This document shows positions 40,904 to 64,000 of a stretch of 64,000 nt of DNA, one piece after another. The DNA is from Patescibacteria group bacterium (lineage in GTDB: Bacteria; Patescibacteriota; Dojkabacteria; J137), in contig BOLA01000001.1 in NCBI GenBank assembly GCA_016861265.1, positions 523,569-587,568 on the forward strand, read 5' to 3'. Position 1 is the first letter of the stretch, and each line of letters begins with the position of its first letter. The notes beneath the pieces were generated by a model. The model ran no database searches. It was given only the letters and a program-made list of their open reading frames with translations, and was not told the DNA's origin. The translations under genes and the position numbers were made by a program.

Positions 40904-40906
40904 TCA

Positions 40907-45453: not shown

Positions 45454-45534
45454 AACTAGAATTATTATAAGTAATTTATTTTACTAAACTAATTGAAATG
45501 GCGGGACACACAGGTCTGGAACCAATGAATACTT

Positions 45535-45614: not shown

Positions 45615-45689
45615 AATTCATCCACCAAAATATTCAATTTAATTATAACAAATGAGACATTTGAGACACCTAAAAAAGGAGTCTCAAAA

Positions 45690-46703: not shown

Positions 46704-46710
46704 GAATTCA

Positions 46711-48336: not shown

Positions 48337-48383
48337 AAATAATTATATATTTTTTTGCTTTAAAGTTATAATTTCTGCATATT

Positions 48384-49835
48384 TTGATTGTTAATAATAT
48401 GCTCACAAAGTCTGATTTCCTAATTTATCTTGATGCCCCAAGGCATTTGTGGGCAGTTAAGCACGGCAAGGTTGTAGAAAATGAACTAAATGCGTATGTT
48501 AAACATTTATTTGAGCAAGGATATGAAGTAGAAAAATTAGCAGAGGAATACATTCAAGAATGTTTAATTCCCCAATATAAGGCTCATCAATCTGATGTAT
48601 TAATCCAACCTACATATATTGACGGTGATTTCGAAGCTAGAACTGATGTACTTATAAAAAATCCTTTCACAGAAAAATGGGATATGTTCGAAATCAAAAG
48701 TTCTACGAGTGTAAAGAAAACTCATCAATATGATGCTACATTTCAGGCTCTTATATTTCAGAAAAAGTACGACTTGGGACAAATACACATACTCCATTTA
48801 AATGGAAAATATATACGAGAAGGCGAAATAAACTTATCTAATTTATTTGTTGAAACTAATATTACTGAAAAGGTTGGATCACTTAAAGATGAGGTTAACC
48901 TATTACGTTGTAAAGCACTTGAAGATATAAAGGAAGATAGCTGTACTCATGTACTTGGATGTATCAAACCAAAAGAATGTATATGTTCAGATATATGCCA
49001 TCTAAATCTTCCTGAATATTCAATTTATGATATTAATTATTTAACAGGGAATGAAAAGAAAATAAGGGAGCTAGAAGAAAGAAGTATTATTAATATATTT
49101 GATATCCCTGAGGATTTTAAACTTTCAGAGAAACAACGATTTCAAGTCTCTGTTGCACAAAGTAAACAAGTGGTTATAGATATTGATTCAATTAAATTAG
49201 ACCTTAAAGGAATAGAATATCCACTTCACTTTATAGATTATGAATCTTTTAATCCAGCAGTACCTATATACAATGGATATAAACCATATGACCAAATGTC
49301 TTTTCAGTGGTCTCTACATGTTCAAAAAGAACCTAATGGTGATTTAGAGCATTATGAATTTATCGAACTAGAGAAATGTGATCCAATTCAAAATTTCCTT
49401 TCTGAGTTATCTAAAAAAATTAATCGAAGTGGTTCAATTATTGTTTGGAATAAAACATTTGAAGGTACGCAAAATAAACGTATGGGACAGATCCATCCAG
49501 AATTTGCCTCTTTTTGTGAAGACATGAATACCAGAATGTATGATCTAATGGATATCTTTAAGAATCAATGGTATGCAGATCCTAAATTCAAAGGAAGTTT
49601 TTCTATTAAAAAAGTACTTCCAGTGCTAGTACCAGAGTTAAGTTATGAGGGAATGAGTATCGCAGAGGGGGCTACAGCCATGGCAAGTTGGAATGAAATA
49701 ATATATGGAGAAAGTATTGAAGATGATAAAAAATTAGATACTAAAAACAATTTGCTTAAGTACTGTGAACTTGATACTTTGGCAATGATAAAGATATTCG
49801 CAGTCATTCAGAAAGTTCTAAATTATAACTATTAA
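48384..49835 (+). CDS. DUF2779-like protein with an N-terminal Cas4/RecB-like PD-(D/E)xK nuclease motif
   Basis: N-terminal LTKSDFLIYLDAPRHLW then D-VLIKNP...FEIKSS (D...ExK). The C-terminal half carries the HFIDYESF segment. Confidence 0.45.
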   Translation: MIVNNMLTKSDFLIYLDAPRHLWAVKHGKVVENELNAYVKHLFEQGYEVEKLAEEYIQECLIPQYKAHQSDVLIQPTYIDGDFEARTDVLIKNPFTEKWDMFEIKSSTSVKKTHQYDATFQALIFQKKYDLGQIHILHLNGKYIREGEINLSNLFVETNITEKVGSLKDEVNLLRCKALEDIKEDSCTHVLGCIKPKECICSDICHLNLPEYSIYDINYLTGNEKKIRELEERSIINIFDIPEDFKLSEKQRFQVSVAQSKQVVIDIDSIKLDLKGIEYPLHFIDYESFNPAVPIYNGYKPYDQMSFQWSLHVQKEPNGDLEHYEFIELEKCDPIQNFLSELSKKINRSGSIIVWNKTFEGTQNKRMGQIHPEFASFCEDMNTRMYDLMDIFKNQWYADPKFKGSFSIKKVLPVLVPELSYEGMSIAEGATAMASWNEIIYGESIEDDKKLDTKNNLLKYCELDTLAMIKIFAVIQKVLNYNY

Positions 49836-52800
49836 TCAATCTTCTATCCACTCAGAAGAAGTTCGTTTACCTGAGGAGATGTGTCCAACTACCCTACCAT
49901 TACTTAGTTGAAATATAAGTCCTACCTGTCGAACTCTTAACCCAAGAAGTGATCTAACCTCAAGACATATAGCAAGCTTCTGATCATCTGGAGATAGGAT
50001 AGAACTTTCAATTTTAGAATTTCGATTACTATATTCTTTGGGTAATTGATTCAGTATCGTAGACCATTGTTCAGATTTATCCGTACTACGATTAATTCCG
50101 TCAAGAAGCTGGGTAAGTGGTTCAAGAAAGATTTGCTCTCCAGATGTAAGATATTCAAAATAAATTTGTAAACCTGTTAACTCACAAATTTTCAAATCTT
50201 CAGGATGGCATTTTCTCCCACTCCATGCACATGGTTTAGCTTCAAGAGGTGAACAATAATTCCCTGTTACAGACTTTATAGCTTCTTTCTCCATTAACCT
50301 TGCTCCAGAAAGGCTGCTTGAGACAAAGAATTTCTTAAGGGCCTTTTCCCCTGAAAATACAGATTTCTCAAGTTCATCAGTCAATACTTTTTTGCCAGTA
50401 ATAGAACATTGTTCTAAAATCCCAGGTAGAACTATTTTATTAGTAATTTCACATTTTTCTCCTTCAGAAGGTAGTAATGGTTGTTTTGTTACTGCACAAA
50501 AAATGAATTCGTCTTTATGCCCAGTTTTTCCAGAGAAAATAGAACGTAATTGTTGATCTTTCCTATAAGTTTTTTTTGAAACTTCACTAATAGCCAACTC
50601 GTCTTTTAGAACTTCATCTCCCGTAAATTCACATTTACCAAAAAAACTTTGTTCGGCTTTCTTTCCACTTAATTGAGAAACTTTTAGCAGTGATCTCATA
50701 ACAGGTTTACCTGTAATTTGAGAATAATCAATTTCATCTATTAAGACACGTTTACCAGTAAGTGAACATATTATAGTATTATCAATTGTGGCTTTTCTGG
50801 AACTTATTTCTGATTGAATTAAAAGGTTACGCAATACTTTATTTCCAGTTATTGCATCTGACTCGAGGCAGTCTACAGGTACCTCTTTATTGGTTTTGGT
50901 ACATTTTTCTATTACTGGAACATTTAGAAATTTATTCTGAGATGGAGATAGAGTTATTTCACTAGTATAATTTTCACCACCATCAATATGGTAGTTTACA
51001 AGTATTTTTAATTCTCTGTGAACTGTCCCCTCAACACCTACCATATTGACATTAAGTCTAGGTGTAAAGTCATCATTTAGTCTCTTTCTTTTAATAAGAT
51101 CATCACCTGCACTTTGAATTTCTATTGATTTTCGTTCATTGTAAAATCTACAAAATTCAGATATCCCTTCATCGGCATTTATATTATTAATAATCTTATC
51201 TATTATAATTCCAATCGAACTAGGATCTTCTATAGTATTTGGTATTTTATCTAAGCCGTTTTTAATTTTATTATTATGTTCTATAGAAGAACAATCACTT
51301 TCGATAAGTCGCTCATAGCTATCGCAAGCTACTGTTGAGCGAACCCTAATGAGTGTTTTTCCATCAAAACATCTATATACATCTTTGATATTATAATTTT
51401 TAAAATCACCATTAAAACTATTGACCCATTTTCTTGATATCTCGTCAATCTTTTGTAATATACCATCATCTACATCTGAAACGTTGTGTAATGGGCTACT
51501 AGTTATCTTACCTACAAGACTCTCAAATGAACTTGTTCCTGGAGCATACAAATCACTGTCGGGAGATTTCAAATCTTCATTAAATTGTATTATTTTTATA
51601 TCGCCATCAAGATTACAGCTATATGAATCTATATCAATTTGTGAGATTTTACCCCCCAAGGATTCTAGTCCTAGTAGAGAAACCTCTTTCGCACTCAAAG
51701 ACTTAATTTGTTTAGGTAAATTAGGACATAATGGTCCCATATCTGAACTATCCATTGCACCGAGAAGTGTATTAATAACTTTTTGTTGAGCTTCTAATTC
51801 AACTTTTGCATTAGATATACTTTCCTCGGTCATTCGAGTTGCTTCTTCTATATCTTTTCCTGCTAGCGATGCGATAACAAGTTTACGGATCTGTTCTTCA
51901 AATCCATCTGAGACTTCGTCTTCATTTTCACTTAAACCAGAACCTTCTAATAACGATTCGATATCTCCAATGGCGTGAGCAGCCATCTGTAATTTTTCCA
52001 TTAATCGACCTACAATTTTTTCTTCAAAGGTATCTTTCAAGACTATATTAAAAATGCTTACATTCTTGTGCTCAGAGGCTAATCTTTGAATACGACCTAT
52101 TCGTTGCTCAACAATCATAGGATTCCACGGCAGATCATAATTAATTAGTACATTTGCCGATTGTAAATTTACCCCTTCTGAACCTGCTTCTGTAGATATA
52201 ATCACGTTAATTTCTGGATTGGACTTCTTAAATCTGGCTATCGTATCTTGGTTTCTTTGTCCTGAATCGCCGTTTATGAGTCCACATTTTATACCTAGTT
52301 TTTCTAGAAAGATTTGAATTGAGGTCTGTGTTTCTCTACGTCCTGTAAATATGACCAATCTCCATGCATCAGGTTTCTCGGAACGCAATCTCTCTACCAA
52401 GATATTTAACCCATTTAACTTTGCCGTCACCCCAACCCGTTTAACTACTTCTTGAACATCTATGGCTAGTGATTCAGGAATTGTCTGCCTTCTTGCCATG
52501 TTATTAAGTTGTGCAGATAATGCTTCGGGGCTACTTATAAGAGCTTGGAGAATAGATATTTGAGCTAATGGGTTGAGTTTTTGAATTGGTTCTGCAATTG
52601 TATTAATTAATTCTAGCTCCTCTTTAGATGGAATAACTCGATGGAGTTGCACTATCCTTTCTGGAAAATCAAGTTTTGCATCGATTCTCCTTACACGAGA
52701 CATATACCCATAAACAATTGAACGAAATTCCTCAGCTTTTTCTGGTTTTAAGTGACGAGCATCTGAACGATTATCAGCAATAAAATTTCTTGCGAATAAT

Positions 52801-53528
52801 CCTTCACTTCCAAGAGGATTTTCATGACCTCTAGCCACTGTTAACAAGTCAATGAGTGAGTATAAATCCCAAAGTCTATTGTGAATTGGAGTTGCGGTAA
52901 GCATCAATACATATTTAAATACTCTGTCCGATAAGGCTTGATGAAAACGTTTGGCAACTTGAGGGGTTTTCTCTACACCATATAGATTACGCAATTTGTG
53001 AGCTTCATCTAAAATCAACATTTCAAAACCTAATGTTGATAAGATGTCGAAATATATACGTGCGGATTGATATGTTGTAATTACTGCAACGGAAGAGTCA
53101 TCTGGAAAATTTAATTCTGTTAATTTCTTACCAATTGCTTCAATAGCTGTTATCTTAAATTTTAAATCTAGTTCTTCACGCCACTGAGGCATTAATATTT
53201 TGGGACAAACAATCAGTATCTTTGACACCCGATTACGGGATATAAGTTCGCTTATTATTAATCCGGCACTTATAGTTTTTCCTAACCCAACGTCATCAGC
53301 TAACAATGTAACAGGTAATCTCCTACAAAATGTGATTAAATTGGATACTTGATGTTGATATGGTTCAACATGATCTTTCCATTTATATTCTGACTTTATA
53401 TCACTTCTATCTTTTATTATAATTGGATCAATTAAATCCCATTCGAGTGCAGATTTATACAGATCATATTCTTCTTTATCTTTGGATTTTGAAAGTGCTT
53501 TAGTTTGAATGATAGAAGATGTATCCAT
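49836..53528 (-). CDS. SNF2-family (SWI2/SNF2) helicase/translocase with a roughly 650-aa C-terminal extension carrying tandem C-x2-TG-x2-VL repeats
   Basis: SNF2_N LADDVGLGKTISAG, DEAH box LILDEAHKLRN, helicase-C motifs (ISTEAGSEGVNLQ, QRIGRIQR). C-terminal repeats such as CSLTGKRVLIDEI, CEFTGDEVLKDEL, CEITNKIVLPGIL, CSITGKKVLTDEL. 1230 aa. Confidence 0.85.
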   Translation of the reverse strand: MDTSSIIQTKALSKSKDKEEYDLYKSALEWDLIDPIIIKDRSDIKSEYKWKDHVEPYQHQVSNLITFCRRLPVTLLADDVGLGKTISAGLIISELISRNRVSKILIVCPKILMPQWREELDLKFKITAIEAIGKKLTELNFPDDSSVAVITTYQSARIYFDILSTLGFEMLILDEAHKLRNLYGVEKTPQVAKRFHQALSDRVFKYVLMLTATPIHNRLWDLYSLIDLLTVARGHENPLGSEGLFARNFIADNRSDARHLKPEKAEEFRSIVYGYMSRVRRIDAKLDFPERIVQLHRVIPSKEELELINTIAEPIQKLNPLAQISILQALISSPEALSAQLNNMARRQTIPESLAIDVQEVVKRVGVTAKLNGLNILVERLRSEKPDAWRLVIFTGRRETQTSIQIFLEKLGIKCGLINGDSGQRNQDTIARFKKSNPEINVIISTEAGSEGVNLQSANVLINYDLPWNPMIVEQRIGRIQRLASEHKNVSIFNIVLKDTFEEKIVGRLMEKLQMAAHAIGDIESLLEGSGLSENEDEVSDGFEEQIRKLVIASLAGKDIEEATRMTEESISNAKVELEAQQKVINTLLGAMDSSDMGPLCPNLPKQIKSLSAKEVSLLGLESLGGKISQIDIDSYSCNLDGDIKIIQFNEDLKSPDSDLYAPGTSSFESLVGKITSSPLHNVSDVDDGILQKIDEISRKWVNSFNGDFKNYNIKDVYRCFDGKTLIRVRSTVACDSYERLIESDCSSIEHNNKIKNGLDKIPNTIEDPSSIGIIIDKIINNINADEGISEFCRFYNERKSIEIQSAGDDLIKRKRLNDDFTPRLNVNMVGVEGTVHRELKILVNYHIDGGENYTSEITLSPSQNKFLNVPVIEKCTKTNKEVPVDCLESDAITGNKVLRNLLIQSEISSRKATIDNTIICSLTGKRVLIDEIDYSQITGKPVMRSLLKVSQLSGKKAEQSFFGKCEFTGDEVLKDELAISEVSKKTYRKDQQLRSIFSGKTGHKDEFIFCAVTKQPLLPSEGEKCEITNKIVLPGILEQCSITGKKVLTDELEKSVFSGEKALKKFFVSSSLSGARLMEKEAIKSVTGNYCSPLEAKPCAWSGRKCHPEDLKICELTGLQIYFEYLTSGEQIFLEPLTQLLDGINRSTDKSEQWSTILNQLPKEYSNRNSKIESSILSPDDQKLAICLEVRSLLGLRVRQVGLIFQLSNGRVVGHISSGKRTSSEWIED

Positions 53529-53566
53529 ACTTTATTTTGATTTTATGGTTATCATTGGTAATTAAG

Positions 53567-54559
53567 TTAATGTGTACGCTGCATAATTAATTCTTCTTTC
53601 ACTTTTTGATGAGCTGTTGTTAGCATTTCTTTGACACCATTTTTAAACTTCGTATTTTCAAGTATCTGAGGTACCTTTACATTTCTTACAGTATCAGGAA
53701 GAGACAAATTTGCAAAGGCATTGGTTGGTCTATACTTGAAGTCTTTAAGATTAAAAACAGTCATTATCTTTCCATATTGAGCCTCAAAATCATTTATTAA
53801 TTCTTGAAGTTTTGATCTGAATAAATCTGGATGTAATTTTATGTATCTTTTATTTGTAAATCCAACCACTGAAGCTATATTAATCATATCATCCGCGGAT
53901 AATGTCGTGCCTTCTAGGATTCTTAGAGCTAATGCTTCGTCAATCTCCTCTTCTAATATAAATGGAGCTCTTTTTATTATATCGACTCTTTTTCTAGCAA
54001 TACTTGCGATAATTAAGGACCTTATTGCATATGAACGAAAAGATGCTTTTGAATGGTATTGTAGAAGTCGAATAATTTCATCCACAGCTTTATCATAATC
54101 TCCAACAAGTAAGTGTCTTTCTAATCCATAAAAATATAAAAATACATAGCTTAAATTAGTTTCTTGAGTGACATCTCTCAACCAGTTTAGATATTGATAG
54201 CGAGTCTCAGGATAAAATTTACTATAAGAAGGGTAATACATAGGATCTTTATATAAATCATTATTTGGTTTGATTGGAAGCTTTGTCCAAATCAAACTTG
54301 GTTCAGCGTAAAATCCATTTTCATTTTCCTTAAGTTCGGGACCGTTCTCAGTAAGAGTTATCGTTATGCTCATAGAGCCAGCAATTTCTATCTTAGATGT
54401 ATCTTCATCAGTTATCCATAATAAAGAAAGGGTGGGTTCAGGTATTCTTAATGAATCTCTAATATTATTATTTGTAGATCTACTGACACTAATAATCTTA
54501 TTATCAATATTTGGATTATTATTAGTTTTCTTAAATAGAGATCCAAGTAAATTGAACAT
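53567..54559 (-). CDS. hypothetical protein co-transcribed with the SNF2 helicase (possibly TerB-N-like, unverified)
   Basis: 330-aa ORF ending 38 nt upstream of the SNF2 start. Contains a conserved-looking YQYLNWLRDV...YFYGLERHLL segment. Confidence 0.45.
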   Translation of the reverse strand: MFNLLGSLFKKTNNNPNIDNKIISVSRSTNNNIRDSLRIPEPTLSLLWITDEDTSKIEIAGSMSITITLTENGPELKENENGFYAEPSLIWTKLPIKPNNDLYKDPMYYPSYSKFYPETRYQYLNWLRDVTQETNLSYVFLYFYGLERHLLVGDYDKAVDEIIRLLQYHSKASFRSYAIRSLIIASIARKRVDIIKRAPFILEEEIDEALALRILEGTTLSADDMINIASVVGFTNKRYIKLHPDLFRSKLQELINDFEAQYGKIMTVFNLKDFKYRPTNAFANLSLPDTVRNVKVPQILENTKFKNGVKEMLTTAHQKVKEELIMQRTH

Positions 54560-54677
54560 AATATTCTTAAATGATTAACTTTTTAATTTAATAATATAGA
54601 GATTTTACTACTTTTCTCTTGCATTTTATATTGAGATATACTTAGCCTTCCTCACAAATTTGTATTATAATCATGGC

Positions 54678-54848
54678 ATAAGAGACCTAACCTCATATGG
54701 ATTTTTCTATGTGAGCATGGTTTCTAAACAAAATCGTACGACACGTAAAAACGGCTTCTCAGCCGGTATCGTGTCGTACGTCTACAAGGGGGAACTCTTG
54801 TAGGGCAGCCCGAAAGGGTGTAGCCACTGGTCTGAGAAGTCGTTTTTT
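54678..54848 (+). ncRNA. candidate structured RNA or regulatory element (GC-rich, nested hairpins, pseudoknot-capable)
   Basis: -10 TATAAT at 54666-54671; perfect 11-bp inverted repeat CGTACGACACG (54735-54745) / CGTGTCGTACG (54770-54780) enclosing the hairpin CGGCTTCTCAGCCGG; GNRA-capped hairpin GGCAGCCC-GAAA-GGGUGUAGCC (54804-54825); segment ACTGGTCTGAGAAG (54826-54840) complementary to CTTCTCAGCCGGT; then a T6 run. Confidence 0.35.
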
Positions 54849-54965
54849 GCTATTAAGCCTCAAACACTTTCCAAATCAGCACGTAAATTAATTTTTAATA
54901 CTAATTGCCTATGACAATAAGCTTATAAGTACAGCTAGCTTACTTTTATTTTTTATTATTTTTAT

Positions 54966-55478
54966 ATGGCTCAAGATCAAAATAGTACTATAGGAACAGC
55001 AAAAAAATCCTTTATTAAAGGAATTAGTGGAACTGTAGGAATAATAGGAGGATTGTTGCTTTGTTGCTTAGTTGTTGCTGTAATGGTTGCTATGTCACAA
55101 GGTAGTAAGACACCAACTAATGACTCGTCCAGCAATAGTTCAAACACTAGCTCTAATACACCCAAACATGATCCAGTAAATTTAACTTTTACAGGAAAGG
55201 GTAATAAAGATACAGATAGTTTTACTTTGTATGATGGAACTGCAAAAATGACAGTTACTACATCAGGTGGATCTGTGGGTACATACTCATCAGTAACTTT
55301 GCAAAAAGAAGGCGAGAATATGTTCTTAAATGGACTAACTGGCGAAGATTTAAATATCTCAACTAAGGGTTCAGAAGATGGTCATGGAGATACAACAGTT
55401 AGAGGAATAAAAGAAGGTAAATATTACATTTCTGTTATTTCAGGTGTTGACTGGAGTGTGACTATAACTCAAGAGTAA
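54966..55478 (+). CDS. membrane-anchored Ser/Thr-rich secreted protein, unknown function
   Basis: N-terminal transmembrane helix GIIGGLLLCCLVVAVMVAM, S/N-rich linker, beta-rich C-terminal domain. Confidence 0.5.
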   Translation: MAQDQNSTIGTAKKSFIKGISGTVGIIGGLLLCCLVVAVMVAMSQGSKTPTNDSSSNSSNTSSNTPKHDPVNLTFTGKGNKDTDSFTLYDGTAKMTVTTSGGSVGTYSSVTLQKEGENMFLNGLTGEDLNISTKGSEDGHGDTTVRGIKEGKYYISVISGVDWSVTITQE

Positions 55479-55498
55479 TAATCAAACCACTAAACCTA

Positions 55499-55522
55499 AG
55501 AGACCTCGTGATGAGGTCTCTT
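55499..55522 (+). terminator. rho-independent terminator-like hairpin (agagacctc gtgatg gaggtctct)
   Basis: 9-bp stem followed by a T-rich stretch, immediately after the 54966-55478 CDS. Confidence 0.55.
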
Positions 55523-55533
55523 TCTATATCAAG

Positions 55534-56223
55534 ATGTATAATCTAACTATGACTATTGAAGAACTTAATAAACATATAGAATCACTAACTCTTCCGCATA
55601 AGAAACTTTTAGAAATTTTTCAAAATGTATATAAACCATTTGAAGAGCTATCTGAAATTTTAGGACATCAGGTATATGTAGATCCTACAACATTTGAAAC
55701 ATTAGTTTCTATTTTTCCTACTGAAAAAAGTCTAAAAGTTTCAATCGAAGAGATAACGGCAAATCCAGATATTTACTTTATCTACACAAACCATGTAAAA
55801 CTTCCTCGATATAGAGACTCACACATTATTGTAGATAAACAAACTGCATTTTTAATAAATAAGCTTGATATGACATTTAGACGAAAATTTTACTTAGGAA
55901 TAAAAAAAGTTCCATTCAATAAAAATACTTCAGTACTTAGAATTGAAGACTACACCTTTGAAATAGATAAAGACTCTGACACATATAACCTATGTCTTAT
56001 GCTATTTGGTTCTAAACAATATATTAATCGAATATGGAAATGGAATGATATCTTAGATAAAGTAATGGGACATAGCGATGAAAGAAAAGATGATGTGAAT
56101 GCTTTTAAACTTAAAGTCTATAGATTAAATCTAAGACTATATAAAACTGGGTATAAGAATATAATTTTGTATAAAAATAAAACAGTGCGTGTAAATCCTG
56201 AGTATATCTTCCTCTTCAAATAG
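55534..56223 (+). CDS. hypothetical protein
   Basis: 229-aa ORF. Confidence 0.45.
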   Translation: MYNLTMTIEELNKHIESLTLPHKKLLEIFQNVYKPFEELSEILGHQVYVDPTTFETLVSIFPTEKSLKVSIEEITANPDIYFIYTNHVKLPRYRDSHIIVDKQTAFLINKLDMTFRRKFYLGIKKVPFNKNTSVLRIEDYTFEIDKDSDTYNLCLMLFGSKQYINRIWKWNDILDKVMGHSDERKDDVNAFKLKVYRLNLRLYKTGYKNIILYKNKTVRVNPEYIFLFK

Positions 56224-56287
56224 ACACCGAACCTGACCGAAACCCACTTCATGATGTAATTAGATAATAATTTTTATCTAATTATAT

Positions 56288-57616
56288 ATGGAAGAAAAAC
56301 TTCAAACTGTCTATGTAAATATAGACGATCTTACCAAAGCTGACTACAACCCAAGGAAATGGGATGAAAAAGCACTTTCAGATTTAAAAGAAAGCATAAA
56401 GCGATTCGGCATAGTAGATCCAGCTATAGTAAATTCAGCTGAAAGTAGAAAAAACATAGTGATTGGTGGACATATGCGTATTGAAGCAGCTAAAGCTTTA
56501 GGTCTTAAAGAAATGCCGGTAATTTATCTGGATATTTCAGATATCGAAAAAGAAAAAGAGCTTAATTTAAGACTTAATAAAAATCAAGGTGAGTTTGATT
56601 TCACTCTACTTGCAAATTTCGCAGAAGATCTATTACAAGATGTGGGTTTTAACTCTGAAGAATTAGACTCAATCTTTGATTGGGATGATGACAATCCAGA
56701 AGTTTTTGATTTAAAGAAAGAACTTGAAAAATTAAATATTAAAGAGATTGAAATACAAAAAGGCGATGTTTGGCAACTAGGTGAAAGTAAATTAATGTGT
56801 GGTGATTCTACAATCGAAGAAAATGTTTTGAAACTTATGAATGGTGAAAAAGCAGACATGTGTTTTACTGATCCTCCGTATATTCTGGATTATCTTCATG
56901 GTAAAAAGAAAAATGGCAAACCAGTTGAGGGCTTTGGAGCTAAGAGAAATAGAAAGTATTTAGAAACAGATGAACTTCCTGATAACTTTACAGAATTATG
57001 GATGGGGAACGTATCTAAAATTTCAAAAGATAATTTTCACATCATTGTTTATGAAAATTGGAAAAATATACGAACTATTTGGAATGAAATTGAAAAATAT
57101 TGGAAAGTTAAAAACATGTTAGTTTGGCATCTTCCAAATAGAAATCAGGGATTTGCAGCTAAATATAAGTTCTTTTCAAAGCATGACATTGCAATGGTAG
57201 GTTCAACTGAAAGATCGGAAACTTTTAATTTAAATCCTGAAGATGAGCTTTTACAAAATGAATATGAAACTGCACTTTATGCAATAGCTGGCAAACCTCA
57301 TTGGGAAGGTTATGAAAAAGGTAAAAAAATCCAGCCAACAGATTTTATTGAATATAAAGCTTCAGATGAAAAAAGTTCTGGGCAAGGAATTATATTTGGA
57401 ACAAAACCACTAGAGATTTTAATCCCATATATCAAAGTTTTAACAAAGAGAGATGATTTGATAATTGAACCATTTGGAGGAAGTGGTTCAACTCTTATTG
57501 CTTCAACAAAGATGAAAAGACGATGCTACTTAATGGAAAAGTCACCAGTCTATGCAGAAGTTATTAAAAACAGATGGGAAAAGTTAACTGGTGAGAAAGG
57601 AGTAAAAATATCATGA
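56288..57616 (+). CDS. ParB-like nuclease domain fused to a DNA N6-adenine/N4-cytosine methyltransferase (beta-class)
   Basis: ParBc GGHMRIEAAKALG; methyltransferase motif IV CFTDPPY before motif I EPFGGSGST (beta permutation). A phage-typical fusion. Confidence 0.8.
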   Translation: MEEKLQTVYVNIDDLTKADYNPRKWDEKALSDLKESIKRFGIVDPAIVNSAESRKNIVIGGHMRIEAAKALGLKEMPVIYLDISDIEKEKELNLRLNKNQGEFDFTLLANFAEDLLQDVGFNSEELDSIFDWDDDNPEVFDLKKELEKLNIKEIEIQKGDVWQLGESKLMCGDSTIEENVLKLMNGEKADMCFTDPPYILDYLHGKKKNGKPVEGFGAKRNRKYLETDELPDNFTELWMGNVSKISKDNFHIIVYENWKNIRTIWNEIEKYWKVKNMLVWHLPNRNQGFAAKYKFFSKHDIAMVGSTERSETFNLNPEDELLQNEYETALYAIAGKPHWEGYEKGKKIQPTDFIEYKASDEKSSGQGIIFGTKPLEILIPYIKVLTKRDDLIIEPFGGSGSTLIASTKMKRRCYLMEKSPVYAEVIKNRWEKLTGEKGVKIS

Positions 57617-58014
57617 AGAATAAAAAGAAAGAATTAGTTGAACAACTAAGAAAAACTCCTGTTATTGAAGTTGCCTGTAAAAAGATTGGAATTGGTAGAG
57701 CGACATTCTACAGATGGAAGAAACGAGATCAGAAGTTTGCTGAGGAAGCGGAATTTGCCTTGAATGAAGGTTCTCAGTTAGTTAATGATATGGCTGAAAG
57801 CCAATTAATAACTTCAATTAAAAATGGAAATATGACAGGAATTATATTTTGGCTTAAAAATCACCATAAGCAATATTCTCCAAAACTTGAGGTCACGACA
57901 AAAAGTGCTGATCTTCCGCTAACTGAAGAACAAAAAGAAACGATTAGAAGATCGTTGAGCATGGCATTTAATTTAAATATTAATAATGATGAAAATGAAG
58001 AAGCTACAAATTGA
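57613..58014 (+). CDS. putative terminase small subunit (N-terminal helix-turn-helix)
   Basis: HTH IGIGRATFYRWKK. Small basic protein immediately upstream of and overlapping the terminase large subunit. Confidence 0.45.
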   Translation: MKNKKKELVEQLRKTPVIEVACKKIGIGRATFYRWKKRDQKFAEEAEFALNEGSQLVNDMAESQLITSIKNGNMTGIIFWLKNHHKQYSPKLEVTTKSADLPLTEEQKETIRRSLSMAFNLNINNDENEEATN

Positions 58015-59458
58015 TCAAGACTACTCATTGCCCATGGAAGTTATTGATGAAATACTAAATGATAAGCAAGTTCGTAAGGAATTAATAAGAGAAAGTCATT
58101 ATTGGTTCTTTCATTTGTATTTCAGTGAATATGTGAAGTATTCAACGGCAGATTTTCAAAAGGAAATGTTCAAGATTACTGAAGATGATAAAGTCAAAAT
58201 GGCAGTGATTATTGCATTTAGAGGCTCGGCTAAATCAACAATTATGACTATGTCCTATCCTCTTTGGGCGATAATTGGAAAACAAAAAAGGAAGTGTGTA
58301 GTAATAATATCTCAAACTCAACAACAGGTCAGAACTCACTTTGCAAATTTAAAGCGTGAATTAGAAAGCAATGAAATTTTAAGAAACGATTTAGGTGCAT
58401 TAGAAGAAGAATCTGATGAATGGGGATCATATTCATTAGTCTTACCTAAATTTAATGCAAGACTTATTGCAGCATCAAGTGAGCAAAGTATCAGAGGAAT
58501 AAGGCATGGTGCAAATAGACCTGATCTAATAATTTGTGATGATGTTGAAGATATAAGTTCAGTGAAGACAAAAGAGGGTCGAGATAAAGCATATAACTGG
58601 CTATCAGGCGAAGTTATTCCCCTTGGTGATCAAAATACAAAAGTAATAATGATAGGAAATCTTCTACATGAAGACTCTTTGTTAATGAGATTAAAGAAGA
58701 AAATTACTGAAGAAAATATGAATGCAATATTCAAGGAGTATCCTATTGTTGATTCTGAAAATAATATTCTTTGGGAAAGTAAATTTAAGAACCTTGAGGA
58801 CATTGAGAATTTTAAAAAGATTATAGGAGATGATAAGGCTTGGCAAAGAGAATATATGTTAAAGATTATTCCGGAAGACGACCAACTAGTGTATAGAGAA
58901 TGGATTCAATATTATGATGAATTACCACAAAATACCAGTAGTTATAAATACACTATAATTGGTATTGATTTGGCAATTTCAACAAGTACATCTGCAGATT
59001 ACACAGCTATGATAACAGCGCATGTTTTTGGTTATCTAGAAAATCTTAAAGTATATATATTACCAAATATATTTAATAAGAGAATTGAATTCCCTGAAAT
59101 AGTCGATACCGTAAAACAAAAAGGTAGAGAAAAGTACTACAGCAGAAGACCAGAGATTTATATTGAAGATGTTGGATATCAAGCATCTGTAATACAAGCA
59201 CTGAAGAATCAGAGCTTAAATGTTAAAGGATTCAAAGTTCATGGTCAAGATAAACGAGCAAGGTTAAATTCCGTAACTCCATATATAAGATTTGGACAGG
59301 TCCTTTTTCCTAAGCAAGGAGCAGAAGAATTAATTCAACAGCTAGTCTATTTTGGTGTAGAGAAGCATGATGACCTAGTTGATGCATTTTCGATGCTAAT
59401 GATAAGAGTTTCAGAAAAAGATAGACCTGGTGTGCAAATTTTACCCTATTATTTCTAA
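57986..59458 (+). CDS. phage terminase large subunit (ATPase plus RNase-H-like nuclease)
   Basis: Walker A AFRGSAKST, Walker B PDLIICDDVED, C-terminal nuclease acidic residues (GIDLA...D...D). Confidence 0.6.
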   Translation: MMKMKKLQIDQDYSLPMEVIDEILNDKQVRKELIRESHYWFFHLYFSEYVKYSTADFQKEMFKITEDDKVKMAVIIAFRGSAKSTIMTMSYPLWAIIGKQKRKCVVIISQTQQQVRTHFANLKRELESNEILRNDLGALEEESDEWGSYSLVLPKFNARLIAASSEQSIRGIRHGANRPDLIICDDVEDISSVKTKEGRDKAYNWLSGEVIPLGDQNTKVIMIGNLLHEDSLLMRLKKKITEENMNAIFKEYPIVDSENNILWESKFKNLEDIENFKKIIGDDKAWQREYMLKIIPEDDQLVYREWIQYYDELPQNTSSYKYTIIGIDLAISTSTSADYTAMITAHVFGYLENLKVYILPNIFNKRIEFPEIVDTVKQKGREKYYSRRPEIYIEDVGYQASVIQALKNQSLNVKGFKVHGQDKRARLNSVTPYIRFGQVLFPKQGAEELIQQLVYFGVEKHDDLVDAFSMLMIRVSEKDRPGVQILPYYF

Positions 59459-59502
59459 TAAATAGCTGGACTTCATTTGATTGTAGCGGTACTGTCCTTG
59501 GT

Positions 59503-60831
59503 ATGAAAACAATTAACCAAGAACAAATCCGCTACTGCTTATATGCAAGAAAATCATCAGAATCAGATGAGAAACAAGCAATGAGTATTGATGGGCAACT
59601 TATGGAGATGAAGGCTCTAGCAAAACGAGAAAAGATTGAGATTATTGAAGTTATAACAGAAAGCCATTCAGCAAAAGAAACTGGTCAAAGACCTCAATTT
59701 AATTACTTGTTAGAGAATATTCAAAAGGGAAAATATAACGCCATAATTACTTGGGCACCAGATAGAATTTCTAGAAATGCAGGTGATCTTGGTCGAGTTG
59801 TTGATCTAATGGATCAAGGAAAGCTTCTATTTATCAAAACTCATTCTCAAACTTTCAGCAATAATCCAAATGAAAAGTTCTTATTGATGATTCTATGCTC
59901 TCAGGCAAAACTAGAGAATGATAATCGAGGTATTAATGTCAAAAGAGGTCTAAGGAATAAATGTAGCGTAGGAATTAGACCAGGTATGGCTCCGATTGGA
60001 TACTTGAATACAATGAAAGGAAATAGAATTGCATCTGTAGACTTAGACCCAGAACGAGCACCTATAATTAAAGAGATGTTTTATAAAGTTGCTAATCAAG
60101 GATATTCCGGTAGGATGGTTAAAAAATGGTTAGACAAACAAAACTTTCAAACAAAAAAAGGTTATAAATTAAGCTTAGGAAGAATTTATGTTGCTCTCAG
60201 TAATCCTTTTTATTATGGAGAATTTCAATATGGTAAGAAATGGTATAAGGGAATACATGAGCCTTTAATCTCCAAATATATTTTTGATAAAGTTCAAATT
60301 CAGCTGGAAGTTGTTCCAAGACAATGGAATAAGCAAGTCTTTCCATTTAAAAAGATTTGTAAGTGCGGTGGCTGTGGTGGAAGTGTTACAGCAGAAGTTA
60401 AATACAGAAGAACAAAGAAAGGAGTTATTAATACTCATATCTATTATCACTGCAATAGAGTTAGAGATTATGACTGTGACGAGCCATACATCACTGAGGA
60501 AGAGTTAATAAAACAACTAGTTACTTATTTACCGGAAATAAATTTAGACTCTAACTATTTATGGAGTGAATTAAATGATGAAATTAGAAGGTTAGATAAT
60601 TTAAAAGAAATTATTATAAAAAATAATGAAGCTCCTATTCAGTTAACTCTACCTAGAACTAAAGGAGAGATATTAATTTGTGAACAAAAATCAAATGAAT
60701 ATATACTACAAGAATATTTAGTTCACATACTTCAGTTTGGTACACCAGATGAAAGAATTAAAATCTTAAATGGAATAAAATCCCAGTTTAAATTAACAGA
60801 AAGAAAGCTAATTGTTAATAACAACATCTGA
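59503..60831 (+). CDS. large serine recombinase (resolvase/invertase N-terminal domain, recombinase domain, zinc ribbon)
   Basis: Catalytic-Ser motif YARKSSESDEKQ, DRISRN and a CKCGGCGG...YYHCNR zinc ribbon. Confidence 0.8.
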   Translation: MKTINQEQIRYCLYARKSSESDEKQAMSIDGQLMEMKALAKREKIEIIEVITESHSAKETGQRPQFNYLLENIQKGKYNAIITWAPDRISRNAGDLGRVVDLMDQGKLLFIKTHSQTFSNNPNEKFLLMILCSQAKLENDNRGINVKRGLRNKCSVGIRPGMAPIGYLNTMKGNRIASVDLDPERAPIIKEMFYKVANQGYSGRMVKKWLDKQNFQTKKGYKLSLGRIYVALSNPFYYGEFQYGKKWYKGIHEPLISKYIFDKVQIQLEVVPRQWNKQVFPFKKICKCGGCGGSVTAEVKYRRTKKGVINTHIYYHCNRVRDYDCDEPYITEEELIKQLVTYLPEINLDSNYLWSELNDEIRRLDNLKEIIIKNNEAPIQLTLPRTKGEILICEQKSNEYILQEYLVHILQFGTPDERIKILNGIKSQFKLTERKLIVNNNI

Positions 60832-60875
60832 TCTTATCAGAATCTTTTACAAAATAGAAAATATTAATTTTAAAA

Positions 60876-60892
60876 ACTCTTAGTATAAGAGT
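60876..60892. promoter_or_regulatory. 17-bp palindrome ACTCTTA-gta-TAAGAGT overlapping the -10 of the BlaI-like repressor gene (putative autoregulatory operator)
   Basis: Perfect inverted repeat immediately followed by TATAAT (60893-60898), 26 nt before the repressor ATG. Confidence 0.45.
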
Positions 60893-60923
60893 ATAATTCA
60901 TATTTAAATATCTAATATAAATT

Positions 60924-61298
60924 ATGCTTAAACTTACTGGAGATTTGGAACAAGAAATAATGAATATATTATGGGTTGATAGTGAACCTCTTATACCTTC
61001 TGTAATCCAATCCAGATTATCAAAAAAACTAGCCTATACCACTGTGAAGACAATATTAGAAAGACTTCATGATAAAGGCTTATTAAATAGACAGAAAAAA
61101 TCGGGTGTGTATTATTATAGTCCTAAAGTCTCAAAGGAAAGTTATGGTTCAAAAAGTTTAAGATCAGTTTTTAAAAACATTCTTGGATCTTATGGTAATT
61201 TAGCGATCTCTCAATTTATTGAATCTATAAAAGAAGAGCCTGAGAGTCTTGATCTATTAAAAAAATATTTAGAAGATGAGGAAAATAAATCAATATAA
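60924..61298 (+). CDS. BlaI/MecI/CopY-family transcriptional repressor
   Basis: Winged helix with LEQEIMNILW...TVKTILERLHDKGLL. Confidence 0.7.
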   Translation: MLKLTGDLEQEIMNILWVDSEPLIPSVIQSRLSKKLAYTTVKTILERLHDKGLLNRQKKSGVYYYSPKVSKESYGSKSLRSVFKNILGSYGNLAISQFIESIKEEPESLDLLKKYLEDEENKSI

Positions 61299-62259
61299 TC
61301 AACAAAAGAATATATCATTTTTTCTGTTACTGCTTTTAGGAACAACATATACAATTCTGATTGGAATTATTGTTACAAAAATACTACCTGGGTTTATTAT
61401 GCAACTGTTATATATTATAGATACAGTAAAACACGAGACTTACTTATTAGATCTGTTGACCTCTAAGGACTTTTACATATATTTAATAGGAGGTTTGGTT
61501 ATTTGTTACCTTCTAATTAGATATATTAAAGCAACAATTAGAATGGCTATTTCTATTGTGACTTCAAAAATATATACTGATTCCTTTACTTGGGTTCATA
61601 ATAACGAATATGTATTAATTGATTCAAGCGAATCACTTGCTTTTACTTCTGGGTTATTATTCCCCAAAATCTATATGTCGAATTCTCTAATAGATAAACT
61701 AAGCAAAGATGAACTAGAAAGTGTTCTCTTGCATGAAAAGCTGCATCAAAGTAACTACGATCCTTTAAGAAAATTAATCCAGGATTTCTTGTCAGACTTA
61801 ATACCTTTTATGCCTGATAAGAGCTTCATATTTCATAATTATAGTCTTCTTTCAGAGTTAAGTGCTGATTATAATTATATTAATATGAGAGGTAATAAGA
61901 AAAACCTTTTAAGTGCATTAGATAAAATGTTAAAACCAACAAAAGTGGTTATTAGGTTAAATATTAGTAATTTTTCGTTCAACCATGACAGAGTTAAGAT
62001 TCTATTAGAGAATGATAAGTTCAGAACTAAAAGATATTTTTCTTCGATTACATTTAATATATCATCTGTACTTATATTTTCTTTTATTCTTTTAAATTCA
62101 TCAATATTTATAGTTTGCAATAATATTGAAGAGTGTATCAATGCAGTAGTCTATACAACATATGATCCAGATCCAATGCCTTGTCTACAGTCATCATCAC
62201 AGTTTCACTGCAGTGTCTTTACTAAAAATCATCAAAAAAATTCGTCCACCTCTATATAA
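61276..62259 (+). CDS. BlaR1-like M56 peptidase-domain membrane protein (signal transducer/antirepressor), lacking a penicillin-binding sensor domain
   Basis: Transmembrane helices plus HEKLHQSNYD (HExxH...D zincin motif in the BlaR1 arrangement). C-terminus is a transmembrane segment plus a Cys-rich tail instead of a PBP domain. Confidence 0.6.
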   Translation: MRKINQYNQQKNISFFLLLLLGTTYTILIGIIVTKILPGFIMQLLYIIDTVKHETYLLDLLTSKDFYIYLIGGLVICYLLIRYIKATIRMAISIVTSKIYTDSFTWVHNNEYVLIDSSESLAFTSGLLFPKIYMSNSLIDKLSKDELESVLLHEKLHQSNYDPLRKLIQDFLSDLIPFMPDKSFIFHNYSLLSELSADYNYINMRGNKKNLLSALDKMLKPTKVVIRLNISNFSFNHDRVKILLENDKFRTKRYFSSITFNISSVLIFSFILLNSSIFIVCNNIEECINAVVYTTYDPDPMPCLQSSSQFHCSVFTKNHQKNSSTSI

Positions 62260-62322
62260 TCAATCTTTTCTTTCTGCTACAACTGTAGTAATATAAGTAA
62301 GTAATTTATTATTCACCTACTT

Positions 62323-63162
62323 ATGGCTCAAACTTCAAAAGATATTAAGGAGGAGATTATTACATTAAATATAACTCCATTCTTGACACCTATATCTTTA
62401 ATTTTCTCAGCTTTAATTATTTCTACAGGACTTTTCTTTGGTCTTAGTAATATTGCCAACAATCTTAAAGGCTTTAATGGAGTACAAGGTACTGCTAATA
62501 CACCACAAGCAGTCCAACCAAATCCTACTCAAACAAAGGTAGATATATCTCAAATAAAATCTCTTTTCAATAATAAGAACATTACCTTTGGAGATGAGAA
62601 TAGAAAATTACTTTTTGTTGAAGTTGCAGACCCAAGCTGTCCTTACTGTCATATTGCAGGTGGTAAAAATCCTGAATTAAATAAAAGTGTAGGAACTCAA
62701 TTTGTATTGCAACAAGATGGTGGTAGTTATATAGCGCCTATTCCTGAAATGAGAAAACTAGTTGATGAAGGAAAAGCCTCATTTGTATATATTTATACTA
62801 ATGGACATGGTAATGGCGAAATGGCAACACAAGCTCTTTACTGTGCTTATGAAAAAGGAAGGTTCTGGGAAGCTCATGATTTATTAATGTCATCATCGGG
62901 GTATTCGTTAATAAATGACAATGTAAAAAATGACAAATCAAAATCACAGGAATTAGCTAATTTCCTAAGTTCAGCAGTTAATACTAATGATATGAAATCA
63001 TGTTTAGATAGTGGAAAATATGCTAATAGAATTCAAGAAGATCAAGCTGTAGCCCAAAGCTTAGGTGTAACAGGAACTCCAGGATTCTTTATTAATGAAA
63101 CAAATTTTGCGGGAGCATATAGCTGGAAAGATATGGAAAGCATAGTTCAGTCATCATTATAA
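62323..63162 (+). CDS. DsbA-like thioredoxin-fold thiol:disulfide oxidoreductase, membrane-anchored
   Basis: CPYCH active site and an N-terminal transmembrane helix. Confidence 0.7.
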   Translation: MAQTSKDIKEEIITLNITPFLTPISLIFSALIISTGLFFGLSNIANNLKGFNGVQGTANTPQAVQPNPTQTKVDISQIKSLFNNKNITFGDENRKLLFVEVADPSCPYCHIAGGKNPELNKSVGTQFVLQQDGGSYIAPIPEMRKLVDEGKASFVYIYTNGHGNGEMATQALYCAYEKGRFWEAHDLLMSSSGYSLINDNVKNDKSKSQELANFLSSAVNTNDMKSCLDSGKYANRIQEDQAVAQSLGVTGTPGFFINETNFAGAYSWKDMESIVQSSL

Positions 63163-63175
63163 GAACTCTCTAAAT

Positions 63176-64000
63176 ATGAAGATTTTCGGGAATAACAATA
63201 GTTTAAGTAAAGGTTTTGAATATTTAGATAGCCAGAAATATTTCTATTTTGATTCTGCATGTCAAACCTTACGACCTCAGGAAGTAATAGATGCCGAAGT
63301 GGAATATTATAAAAAATTTAACGCCTGCGGTCACAGAGTTAAATATAAATGGGGTGAGATTGTAGATAAAAAAGTCCAAGAAACAAGAGACTCTATTCTT
63401 AAAATTGTCGGTAAGAATTCTAAAGAATATTCTGTTGGGTTTACATTAAATACTACATTTGGAATTAATACAGTTCTACATCAGATTAAGCCTAATAAAT
63501 TTAATCAAGTAGTTACATCTGAGATTGAACATAATTCTGTTTTTTTGCCATCAATAACTTACGCAAAGAAAAACAACTTAAAAGGGCTAATACTACCAAG
63601 AGATTTTCATGGAAATTTAGAATATTCTATTGAACAGATTAAAAATTCAATTGTTTTAGTAAATACTACTAGTAATATTGATGGAAGAAACCTCCTGAAT
63701 ATAAAAGAATTATGTAAGGATATTAAAAAGAATGGAAGTTTATTGCTTTTAGATGCATCTCAAACTTTTGGTCATAATATTCAGCTTTTAAAAGATGTTG
63801 ATTTTGATGCTTCATTTGGTTCAGGTCATAAAATGTATGGACCTAGTATTGGTTTTATTATTATAAGAAAAGAACTGTTAAAAGATCTTGATTACTTTTT
63901 TATTGGAGGTAGTACTGTGCAAGATGTACGTAAGTCAGACTTTGATCTTATTTCTGATGATTCAGAACTTTATGCACGAATTGAACCTGGTCTTCAAAAC
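63176..64000 (+). CDS. aminotransferase class V / cysteine desulfurase-like protein (3' end truncated by the window)
   Basis: PLP-lysine motif SGHKMYGP and EHNSV. The ORF runs off the window end. Confidence 0.7.
   Translation, partial: MKIFGNNNSLSKGFEYLDSQKYFYFDSACQTLRPQEVIDAEVEYYKKFNACGHRVKYKWGEIVDKKVQETRDSILKIVGKNSKEYSVGFTLNTTFGINTVLHQIKPNKFNQVVTSEIEHNSVFLPSITYAKKNNLKGLILPRDFHGNLEYSIEQIKNSIVLVNTTSNIDGRNLLNIKELCKDIKKNGSLLLLDASQTFGHNIQLLKDVDFDASFGSGHKMYGPSIGFIIIRKELLKDLDYFFIGGSTVQDVRKSDFDLISDDSELYARIEPGLQN

Follow-up and report, generated by a model that had tools for sequence, protein, structure and literature searches.

A widespread integrative island of Patescibacteria with a terminase operon and no virion genes: a candidate phage satellite

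What does a terminase operon do in a bacterial genome in which no virion gene follows it? The question is raised by a stretch of 64,000 nt (hereafter the window) of contig BOLA01000001.1 (GCA_016861265.1, positions 523,569-587,568 of the forward strand) from a Patescibacteria group bacterium (Dojkabacteria; J137), in which a ParB_N domain fused to a DNA methyltransferase (ParB-MTase), a small terminase-like protein (TerS), a large terminase subunit (TerL) and a large serine recombinase (LSR) are encoded one behind the other. A first reading of the letters (the original prediction) had supposed here a phage-derived module, possibly a satellite or a defence-carrying integrative element. The answer that we favour, and to which we give somewhat better than even chances, is that 45505-60831 would be one copy, rearranged at its right end, of an integrative island that is widespread in the Patescibacteria, or Candidate Phyla Radiation (CPR), and that acts as a phage satellite, most likely of a previously undescribed kind. 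The satellite behaviour itself, that is, dependence on a helper and encapsidation, we only infer; the conserved operon, the site-specific architecture of the island with its conserved termini, and its gain and loss between strains are observed.

The four genes lie contiguously and on one strand within 56288-60831, as the original prediction had it and as the list of open reading frames (ORFs) and the profile searches confirm. In the ParB-MTase, whose ParB_N domain is N-terminal, the motif DPPY (motif IV, at about residue 195) comes ahead of FGGSG (motif I, at about residue 405), which is the order of the beta class. The TerS-like ORF overlaps the start of TerL by 29 nt, and its match to HTH_Tnp_1_2 remains below the Pfam cutoff. 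In TerL, the C-terminal RNase H-like nuclease domain is recognised by Terminase_6C (25.1 bits, cutoff 22.6) and by the NCBIfam model of the psiM2_ORF9 nuclease domain (54.5 bits, cutoff 41.65), while the family profile aligns at its N-terminal side with the ATPase of T7 gp19 (4bij; E 2.8e-4) and with another TerL (8dgc), over the Walker A-like FRG-GKS and the Walker B-like (I/L)II-DDVE stretches. Throughout the family alignment the Walker A-like GSAKST, the Walker B-like CDDVED and the C-terminal DD are invariant or nearly so (columns G80, S81, K83, S84 and T85; C184, D185, D186, V187, E188 and D189). Since these columns are near-invariant, and since the identity of TerL among relatives declines no faster than that of arginyl-tRNA synthetase (ArgRS), TerL is judged from its sequences to be under strong constraint, and the terminase pair, conserved together with the methyltransferase, is apparently functional. 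The translation of the recombinase contains YARKSS, DRISRN and a CxxC...C ribbon, as is proper to a large serine recombinase; its match to CcrB in NCBIfam (E 1.4e-30) is below the cutoff, and it is the sole recombinase of the island. An exact-protein look-up of the TerL of the window returned no record, and a scan for promoters and terminators gave no enrichment over shuffled sequences.

What follows the terminase is no less telling. The original prediction, that neither capsid nor portal nor tail genes come after it, holds in the window, where Pfam and PHROGs recognise no structural gene, and neither virion structural nor lysis genes were found, as in the phage-inducible chromosomal islands (PICIs); and it also holds family-wide. 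For the latter, the proteins of 230-700 aa from the 7 kb 3' of TerL, 125 after removal of redundancy, were compared with PHROGs and Pfam, and no portal, major capsid or protease family recurred among them, the matches being to host housekeeping and defence genes. The inspected span was 20 kb per genome. The same tool, applied to the nearest TerLs of true phages (L107 and L108, 34-36% identical), found portal, minor head and major head genes after TerL, and in L107 also a TerS before it. The set of genes that defines the capsid-forming PICIs (cfPICIs), namely portal, capsid/protease, head-tail adaptor and connector, is likewise absent from the window and not recurrent among the 125 proteins, and modules for head, tail and lysis, contiguous and intact or as pseudogenes, were found in neither.

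An alternative explanation for these facts is that the locus is a decayed prophage, that is, the remnant of a CPR phage from which the structural genes were deleted and whose former integrase is the present recombinase. The ParB-MTase, TerS and TerL are indeed the usual start of a phage late operon, the phages with the 34-36% identical TerLs have portal and capsid next, and the copy in the window is rearranged at its right end. However, the same truncated architecture, with intact and conserved ORFs and without a recurrent portal or capsid, is repeated in at least 595 genomes that each represent one species, no catalogued phage has a TerL more than 29% identical to this one, and independent decay would not yield one gene order and conserved termini. 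Thus, we regard a prophage remnant as highly improbable and as the least tenable of the rival explanations.

The ArgRS of the window finds its relatives in the Patescibacteria. Homologues of its TerL, 50-92% identical, are counted by the thousand in metagenomes, the figure of at least 595 genomes coming from a scan of one genome per species. For the comparison, 104 loci with a TerL identity of at least 40% were analysed (the compared loci and contigs are labelled L001-L125; the count out of 91 refers to loci with enough sequence upstream). By record name, 51 of the best 80 loci belong to CPR lineages (Dojkabacteria, Saccharibacteria, Moranbacteria, Woesebacteria, Paceibacterota, Peregrinibacteria, Gracilibacteria and others), 4 are called only 'bacterium', and 25 bear other names (Gammaproteobacteria, Bdellovibrionales, Flavobacteriaceae, Methanoregula, etc.). 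The oddly named records, which include L009, L017, L021, L026-L031, L036, L038-L040, L063, L065, L066, L072, L078, L079 and L082, come nearly all from series of metagenome-assembled genomes (MAGs) made by co-assembly, and may be mislabelled bins or contaminating contigs.

Across the family the order of the genes is maintained: the ParB-MTase lies upstream of TerL on the same strand in 90 of 91 loci, a TerS-like gene is found by BLASTP in 82 of 82, and a serine recombinase is found downstream in 67 of 90, either directly 3' of TerL (35 loci) or, on the same strand, 1-7 kb farther on, with variable genes in between (32 loci). As the methyltransferase belongs to the core of nearly every locus, irrespective of the cargo, the suggestion that it specifically shields the element from the adjacent nucleases does not find support. 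Single MAGs can hold two diverged copies of the module (58% TerL identity), and one 39-kb contig carries two (86% identity). The GC content of the module follows that of its flanks and host from 33% to 56% (r = 0.89), which fits a long residence of the element in each lineage; a GC anomaly as the mark of recent transfer was accordingly rejected.

That the operon is part of an island present in some strains and missing in others can be read at its left edge. One contig of the same species, L110 (150 kb), matches positions 35013-45504 of the window at 100% identity, diverges exactly at 45504/45505, and presents at the break the order tRNA-Arg, intact tRNA-Ser(cga), MscL, that is, an empty site. 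The comparison of related genomes that had been proposed in order to look for presence or absence has thus borne out an integrated element of about 15 kb, which in the window measures 15.3 kb from 45505 to the stop codon of the recombinase. Two other contigs, L111 and L112, diverge at the same base; they carry a glycosyltransferase cargo and only a recombinase stump, which in L111 (1057-1362, minus strand) is the 3' part, of 100 aa, standing beside the tRNA-proximal spacer, with glycosyltransferase, NUDIX and methyltransferase genes as cargo; in this strain, which is of the same species, the island at this tRNA-Ser has thus decayed and had its cargo replaced.

The left border had been placed at a tRNA-like gene (45535-45614), but the strain comparison moves it to a fragment of the 3' part of tRNA-Ser (Block 1, Table 1), which abuts the same flank as the intact tRNA-Ser of L110 and of which the window keeps only a degenerate 3' half. 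The tRNA-like gene is real, but weak and atypical. Its perfect 7-bp acceptor pairing, TTTGGTG/CACCAAA, is obtained only if an insertion of 10-12 nt after the 5' acceptor strand is allowed, and the sequence is an insertion of about 100 bp specific to the window, between Blocks 1 and 2, absent from the termini of L005, L035, L046 and L111, and possibly the relic of an earlier integration. Across the loci, all 8 occurrences of GTCTGGAACC have the expected orientation and none the opposite one, and ahead of 4-5 of them a (T)GGCGG acceptor-like stretch can be recognised, the rest being weaker or coincidental-looking. Further inward lies a conserved terminal motif (Block 2), whose consensus AAAATGAGACAAATGAGACAC was found in 18 loci, always on the module strand and with 0 in the wrong orientation, at 3.4-10 kb upstream of TerL in 17 of the 18, and in some loci preceded by the pseudo-tRNA end; it could serve as a pac site, an operator or an accessory site of recombination. 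The motif, of some 21 nt, is often followed by TATAAAAAGG and the inverted GTCTC (window 45654-45692), and marks the distal end even in very distant lineages (L005:4483, L009:3169, L035:4021, L046:1448, L051:445, L087:1258 and others).

At the opposite end the relatives are more complete than the window. In L002, which has the left cluster of the window at 96% identity and its module at 85%, the island ends with the recombinase, a 203-aa gene and an intact tRNA-Ser, which lies on the other strand and is reached from its 3' end, and in a somewhat more distant relative (L121-L125), which shares the block 54641-60776 at 87%, with the recombinase, a protein called p200 that has no relative in the PDB, tRNA-Ser(gga) and tRNA-Cys. 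Family-wide, a tRNA whose 3' end faces the LSR lies within 3 kb of it in 17 of 50 loci, and is tRNA-Ser in 11 and that for Asp, Glu or Gln in the rest; islands with both ends in one locus measure 9.5, 12.6, 14.4, 17.5 and 19.1 kb. The site of insertion is the very 3' end of a tRNA gene, in most cases that for tRNA-Ser, and the LSR lies at the tRNA-proximal end. A search for attL/attR repeats, which had been recommended for both borders, gave in the window only AT-rich chance matches of 9-10 bp and no long repeats, and a search of other loci, over the 10 kb upstream, for direct repeats of the 3' end of the proximal tRNA yielded no more than shuffled controls, except in L051; the distal end, being a diverged pseudo-tRNA, was found by motif and alignment and not by repeat search.

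It could still be that two neighbours are being taken for one element, so that only the 6-kb block from the structured LOOT RNA to the recombinase (54641-60831) is mobile, its neighbour 45505-54600 being a defence island of the chromosome that is unrelated to it and lies at a tRNA hotspot. The block, of 6.1 kb, is conserved as a unit in L121-L125, the identities of module and left cluster to L002 are unequal, as given above, and in L116 the genes to the left of the module are quite different ones. Against this, 17 loci from distant lineages have the distal terminus at 3.4-10 kb ahead of TerL, the two-ended islands span 9.5-19 kb, two genes of the left cluster (those of p541 and of the DUF2779 protein) recur with the module, and Pfam and PADLOC recognise no second recombinase in 45.5-54.6 kb, all of which makes this explanation distinctly improbable.

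The right border had been assigned to the serine integrase. This is right for L002 and L121, where the LSR lies near the end; in the window itself, by contrast, the LSR is joined to a BlaI flank, and the end with p200 and tRNA-Ser is missing. The blastn alignments stop at 60764 (L002), 60776 (L121-L123) and 60804 (L001), and BlaI (Penicillinase_R), an M48/M56 BlaR1-like peptidase and DsbA then follow, as had been predicted and as Pfam recognises; the cysteine desulfurase of the same prediction, an Aminotran_5 protein, follows in strain L116. This strain has the same junction of LSR and BlaI and is 97% identical to the window over 56088-64000, whereas its left side differs, carrying Shedu SduA, a type I S subunit, a kinase and a 213-aa homologue of p229, the protein encoded just upstream of the ParB-MTase. 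The window therefore combines an L002-like left with an L116-like right, the switch lying inside the p229 gene (55523-56250), and to judge from these alignments its copy is a chimera in which the tRNA-proximal end has been replaced by BlaI/BlaR1/DsbA. As genomes can hold two copies, the simplest origin would be a recombination between the copy at tRNA-Ser and a copy on the BlaI side, and it is most likely by recombination with such a second module copy, upstream of BlaI, that the p200/tRNA-Ser junction would have been lost. No empty site was found on the BlaI side; the contigs with an identical BlaI, DsbA or recombinase all have the recombinase upstream of BlaI.

The neighbourhood of this flank has counterparts elsewhere. 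In distant lineages, genes for heavy-metal P-type ATPases occur downstream of the module, within 10 kb, in 12 loci (L018, L021, L022, L025, L028, L057, L059, L062, L071, L073, L081 and L098) and DsbA/VKOR-type genes in 4 (L028, L060, L074 and L081), and L028, with BlaI, BlaR and DsbA, reproduces the neighbourhood of the right flank of the window. This recurrence suggests a second preferred neighbourhood, or may be old synteny.

The nuclease/helicase cluster that had been noticed upstream proves to consist of a PD-Lambda-3_A-like protein, a zinc-ribbon protein, a DUF2779 protein, an SNF2 helicase and a TerB_N protein, and the island deserves to be called defence-carrying: between the DUF2779 gene and the module there is a slot that holds different anti-phage systems in different strains, among them Shango, Shedu and restriction systems in the relatives (Table 1). 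A Shango system consists of SngA (TerB), SngB (ATPase) and SngC (helicase); in the window the TerB_N protein (SngA, E 3e-17) and the SNF2 helicase are present and SngB is not. The DUF2779 gene, which borders the slot, is found in L002, L006, L053, L087, L103, L104 and L121, among others.

Table 1. Features of the island in the window (positions of the 64,000-nt stretch) and contents of the variable slot in the compared loci.
Feature	Position	Strand	Evidence or content
Block 1, distal island end: degenerate tRNA-Ser 3' half, ggttccagacctgtgtgtcccgcca	45500-45524	-	Strain comparison; breakpoint 45504/45505
tRNA-like sequence (Gly-tcc, long variable arm)	45531-45629	-	ARAGORN tRNA-Gly(tcc), 85 nt, 45531-45615; Rfam tRNA 38.7 bits
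Block 2, conserved terminal motif GAGACATTTGAGACAC: tandem TGAGACA repeat, then GAGAC..GTCTC hairpin	45654-45669	+	
337-aa protein; N-terminal half like PD-Lambda-3_A (defence candidate), C-terminal half phrog_23471	45690-46703	-	PADLOC E 1.2e-33; PHROG E 4.5e-15
p541, 541 aa, multiple zinc ribbons (CxxC), recurrent island gene	46711-48336	-	Homologues close to the module in 16-19 loci, sometimes split into two genes
DUF2779 protein, recurrent, borders the defence slot	48384-49835	+	Pfam E 8.2e-38
Variable defence slot	49836-54559	-	SNF2 helicase, 1230 aa (49836-53528), and TerB_N, SngA-like (53567-54559); Pfam, PADLOC
Slot content, window and L002			SNF2 helicase and TerB_N protein
Slot content, L121			Complete Shango: SngA 4.5e-19, SngB 1.7e-159, SngC 1.8e-203
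Slot content, L116			Shedu SduA, type I S subunit, kinase
Slot content, L001, L005, L007			PLD/SNF2 protein and type IIG enzyme; between TerL and recombinase in L005 and L007
LOOT RNA (Rfam RF03000), structured RNA	54684-54825	+	55.3 bits, gathering score 46.4
p170, 170 aa, ORF after LOOT	54966-55478	+	Translation: N-terminal membrane anchor, Ser/Asn-rich linker, beta-rich domain
p229, 229 aa, probable winged-helix (OmpR/PhoB-type) DNA-binding regulator	55534-56223	+	AlphaFold2 model and Foldseek
ParB_N / beta-class N6/N4 DNA methyltransferase fusion, 442 aa, core gene	56288-57616	+	ParB_N E 2.5e-13; N6_N4_Mtase E 3.6e-19
TerS-like helix-turn-helix protein, 133 aa, core gene	57613-58014	+	TerS PHROGs (phrog_309, E 9e-10)
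Large terminase subunit TerL, 490 aa, core gene	57986-59458	+	phrog_38 E 1.8e-84; Terminase_6C
Large serine recombinase, CcrB/XisF-like, 442 aa	59503-60831	+	Resolvase, Recombinase and Zn_ribbon_recom, all three Pfam above cutoffs
Right-hand breakpoint	60764-60831	+	Similarity to L002, L121 and L003 stops in the last ~20 LSR codons; BlaI flank instead of p200 and tRNA-Ser

With so much defence around it, the terminase module might itself be an anti-phage device, in which TerS and TerL would compete with, or poison, the packaging of an infecting phage, the transfer of the island being secondary or absent. The module is embedded among defence systems, beside the variable slot; satellites such as the PICIs and the Staphylococcus aureus pathogenicity islands (SaPIs) interfere with the packaging of their helpers; and p229, which is hypervariable, could be a sensor of the phage. 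But PADLOC has no model that matches TerL or TerS, the motifs of ATPase and nuclease that real packaging needs are conserved, and mobility is suggested by the tight linkage to a recombinase and by the conserved att-like termini; an island could, moreover, both interfere and be transferred. We consider this explanation quite unlikely.

The LOOT RNA, which did not figure in the list of the original prediction, is an orphan RNA that belongs to this island family. A covariance model of our own, built from six copies, finds it in 32 of the 104 loci (34 matches with the window and L002), always within a few kilobases of the module: just after the recombinase, just before it and divergent from it, or upstream of the methylase (the loci include L023, L026, L029, L030, L042, L045, L047, L049, L065, L073, L081 and L082). 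That these positions could result from circular permutation, with LOOT after the recombinase in one form and before the methylase in the other, was not supported by contig L065, and terminal overlaps were lacking. Over 33 distinct copies, 94.6% of the cells of the alignment pair, as against 33-42% in slid controls, and 38 of the 40 pairs have compensatory changes, so that the helices are very strongly supported by covariation. A variable ORF always lies 3' of the RNA, in its own orientation and usually 50-90 nt away, and its domains may be tRNA_anti-like OB, NucS/PD-(D/E)XK, bPH with SHOCT, or zinc ribbon with Ig; in the window (p170) and in several relatives it encodes a membrane-anchored protein. 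Some of these ORFs (L065:4080-4781, L026:13137-13694, L029:13108-13653, L073:13126-13929 and L081:13166-13705) share an N-terminal part of 25-80 residues with a hydrophobic anchor, while their C-terminal domains differ (OB/tRNA_anti-like or none recognised). By their sequences, the proteins look like a shuffled family of surface proteins. We found no description of the genomic context of LOOT in the literature and, as far as this shows, the island is the first context to be found for it.

If these parts are compared with known systems, the island works, by analogy, most like a PICI-type satellite. The PICIs and SaPIs, too, measure some 10-20 kb, have a site-specific integrase at one end, encode their own small terminase, lack structural and lysis genes, carry accessory and defence cargo and vary between strains, and temperate-type regulators, as will be seen, exist in part of the island family. 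The integrase with defined att ends and strain-variable presence has its equivalent in the empty site of L110, the distal terminus and the tRNA at the recombinase end, and the TerS-like protein might by analogy redirect packaging; but the island has a large serine recombinase where the PICIs have a tyrosine integrase, adds a full TerL and the ParB-MTase fusion, and shows no recognisable primase-replicase or capsid-size-redirection gene. To our knowledge, no satellites have been described in the Patescibacteria, and for the element itself we found no description in the literature. According to a survey, most satellites are in Proteobacteria and Firmicutes, and cfPICIs are defined by portal, capsid, protease and head-tail adaptor/connector genes as well (PMC10085698). 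The cfPICIs share with the island the encoding of both TerS and TerL, and differ from it in those further genes, which are not recurrent in the island family.

Three other systems share single aspects with the island. The staphylococcal cassette chromosome (SCC, as in SCCmec) has a Ccr-like serine recombinase, an insertion at the 3' end of a conserved gene, a variable cassette-like cargo and no transfer machinery of its own, but it is without terminase or packaging genes, its target is rlmH (orfX) and not a tRNA, and it belongs to a different phylum. Tycheposons and other tRNA-targeting islands insert at tRNA 3' ends of streamlined genomes, have swappable cargo and are in some cases thought to be mobilised by phages, but they use tyrosine recombinases and are not known to have the TerS/TerL/ParB-MTase operon or the LOOT RNA. 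Lastly, the late operon of pac-type tailed phages starts with these three genes, likewise ordered and with their frames overlapping, and has a TerL with a T7/Mu-type ATPase and an RNase H-like nuclease, but there the portal and head genes come immediately after (L107, L108), where the island has the recombinase or cargo.

Two genes absent from the window give an idea of how such islands may be controlled. A LexA-type repressor (LexA_DNA_bind and Peptidase_S24) stands divergently upstream of the operon in 21 loci (e.g., L038:5500-6147, minus strand), and a 73-aa helix-turn-helix protein of Cro/CI type is encoded right after TerL, on the opposite strand, in 20 (e.g., L063:10246-10467, minus strand); these genes represent a regulation typical of temperate elements. 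In the window, p229 is a probable regulator according to its AlphaFold2 model, which has a pLDDT of 80 from an alignment of 5 sequences and is of moderate confidence: its C-terminal 100 residues resemble the effector domains of AdeR, ArlR, ToxR and PhoB in the PDB (Foldseek; TMt 0.66-0.70, E 0.008-0.1). Homologues of p229 are encoded by only 8 of 62 upstream neighbours. It is 42% identical to the protein of L116 while the flanking proteins are 95-100% identical, and in the wider comparison (L116:4029-4670, L002:7594-8226) it shows 42% identity or no BLAST hit where its neighbours show 92-100%; the hypervariable gene coincides with the recombination breakpoint between left cargo and module.

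If we accept the satellite reading, the cycle of the island could have the following steps: (i) the infection by a helper phage or, in the subfamily with the divergent LexA/S24 repressor, the SOS response would act as the trigger; (ii) a regulator, here perhaps the winged-helix p229, would switch on the packaging operon, and the recombinase would excise the island; (iii) TerS would recognise a pac site borne by the island, for which, or for a regulatory site, the terminal TGAGACA repeats are a candidate, as TerS proteins typically bind repeated sites; (iv) TerL would cut the DNA of the island and pump it into procapsids of a co-infecting CPR phage; (v) the methyltransferase would mark this DNA, which would thus survive restriction in the next host; (vi) and finally, the recombinase would return the island to a tRNA 3' end. 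The cost of keeping the island would be met by its defence cargo and by the surface protein that LOOT leads.

Several facts weigh against the satellite reading. Neither circular contigs nor contigs with terminal overlaps were found, and neither a helper phage nor an excision junction, a circular form or a copy associated with virions came to light; IMG/VR contains only 27 members of the family, mostly short contigs; no recombination directionality factor was identified; p541 and the DUF2779 protein are uncharacterised, and no replication module was identified among the island genes, as no ORF of the island matches a primase or replicase family in Pfam, PHROGs or NCBIfam, such as a PICI would have. 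Serine-recombinase elements at tRNA 3' ends are unusual; the copy of the window, which is without its proximal att end, is perhaps no longer mobile; and 14 of the 90 loci have no recombinase within 8-10 kb.

This last figure also counts in favour of a domesticated operon, that is, one kept by the host and working with structural genes located elsewhere, in the manner of a gene transfer agent (GTA), or packaging by headfuls in situ and in one direction, as in lateral transduction, and so spreading the defence genes without excision. The TerL is as conserved across the phylum as a housekeeping aminoacyl-tRNA synthetase, the GC content of the module has been ameliorated to that of each host, which could fit a domesticated host function as well, and the recurring neighbourhoods of P-type ATPases and DsbA hint at stable positions. 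However, presence varies within one species, with an empty tRNA site, the termini of the island are conserved, one genome may hold two diverged copies, and a recombinase accompanies most loci, so that, on the 20 kb inspected per genome, a host function is held to be unlikely. Doubtful to a similar degree, and of wider reach, is the idea of a new phylum-wide element in which TerS/TerL, the ParB-MTase and LOOT form a self-contained module of DNA mobilisation, being the first satellites of phages of the CPR or else a system by which these episymbiotic bacteria export DNA, independent of capsids or domesticated by the host, with TGAGACA as the packaging or recognition site and LOOT as an RNA of the machinery and not a mere leader.

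The mobile elements and the phage-host biology of the Patescibacteria are barely charted. If the satellite reading is true, there would be in hundreds of CPR species a new satellite-like design, composed of a serine recombinase, TerS/TerL and a ParB-MTase, and a route by which tiny, streamlined genomes could swap their defence systems. In practice, the tRNA-Ser end, the TGAGACA terminus and the TerL clade are markers with which such islands can be annotated in MAGs, some of their regions being catalogued as viral contigs in IMG/VR, and the predictions can be tested in the few cultivable Saccharibacteria.

Some further genes of the family deserve mention. No Pfam, NCBIfam or PDB family matched p541, and the suspicion that it might be a hidden portal or replication protein found no support, as it shows only zinc ribbons. 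Many members, although not those of the subfamily of the window, have between the ParB-methylase and TerS an extra gene for some 250 aa (e.g., L012:8799-9584, L026:8796-9569, L093:7884-8624), whose product is weakly similar (22-25%) to the ParB-methylase. And finally, type I HsdM, HsdS and HsdR and MmeI-like enzymes are recurrent neighbours throughout the family.

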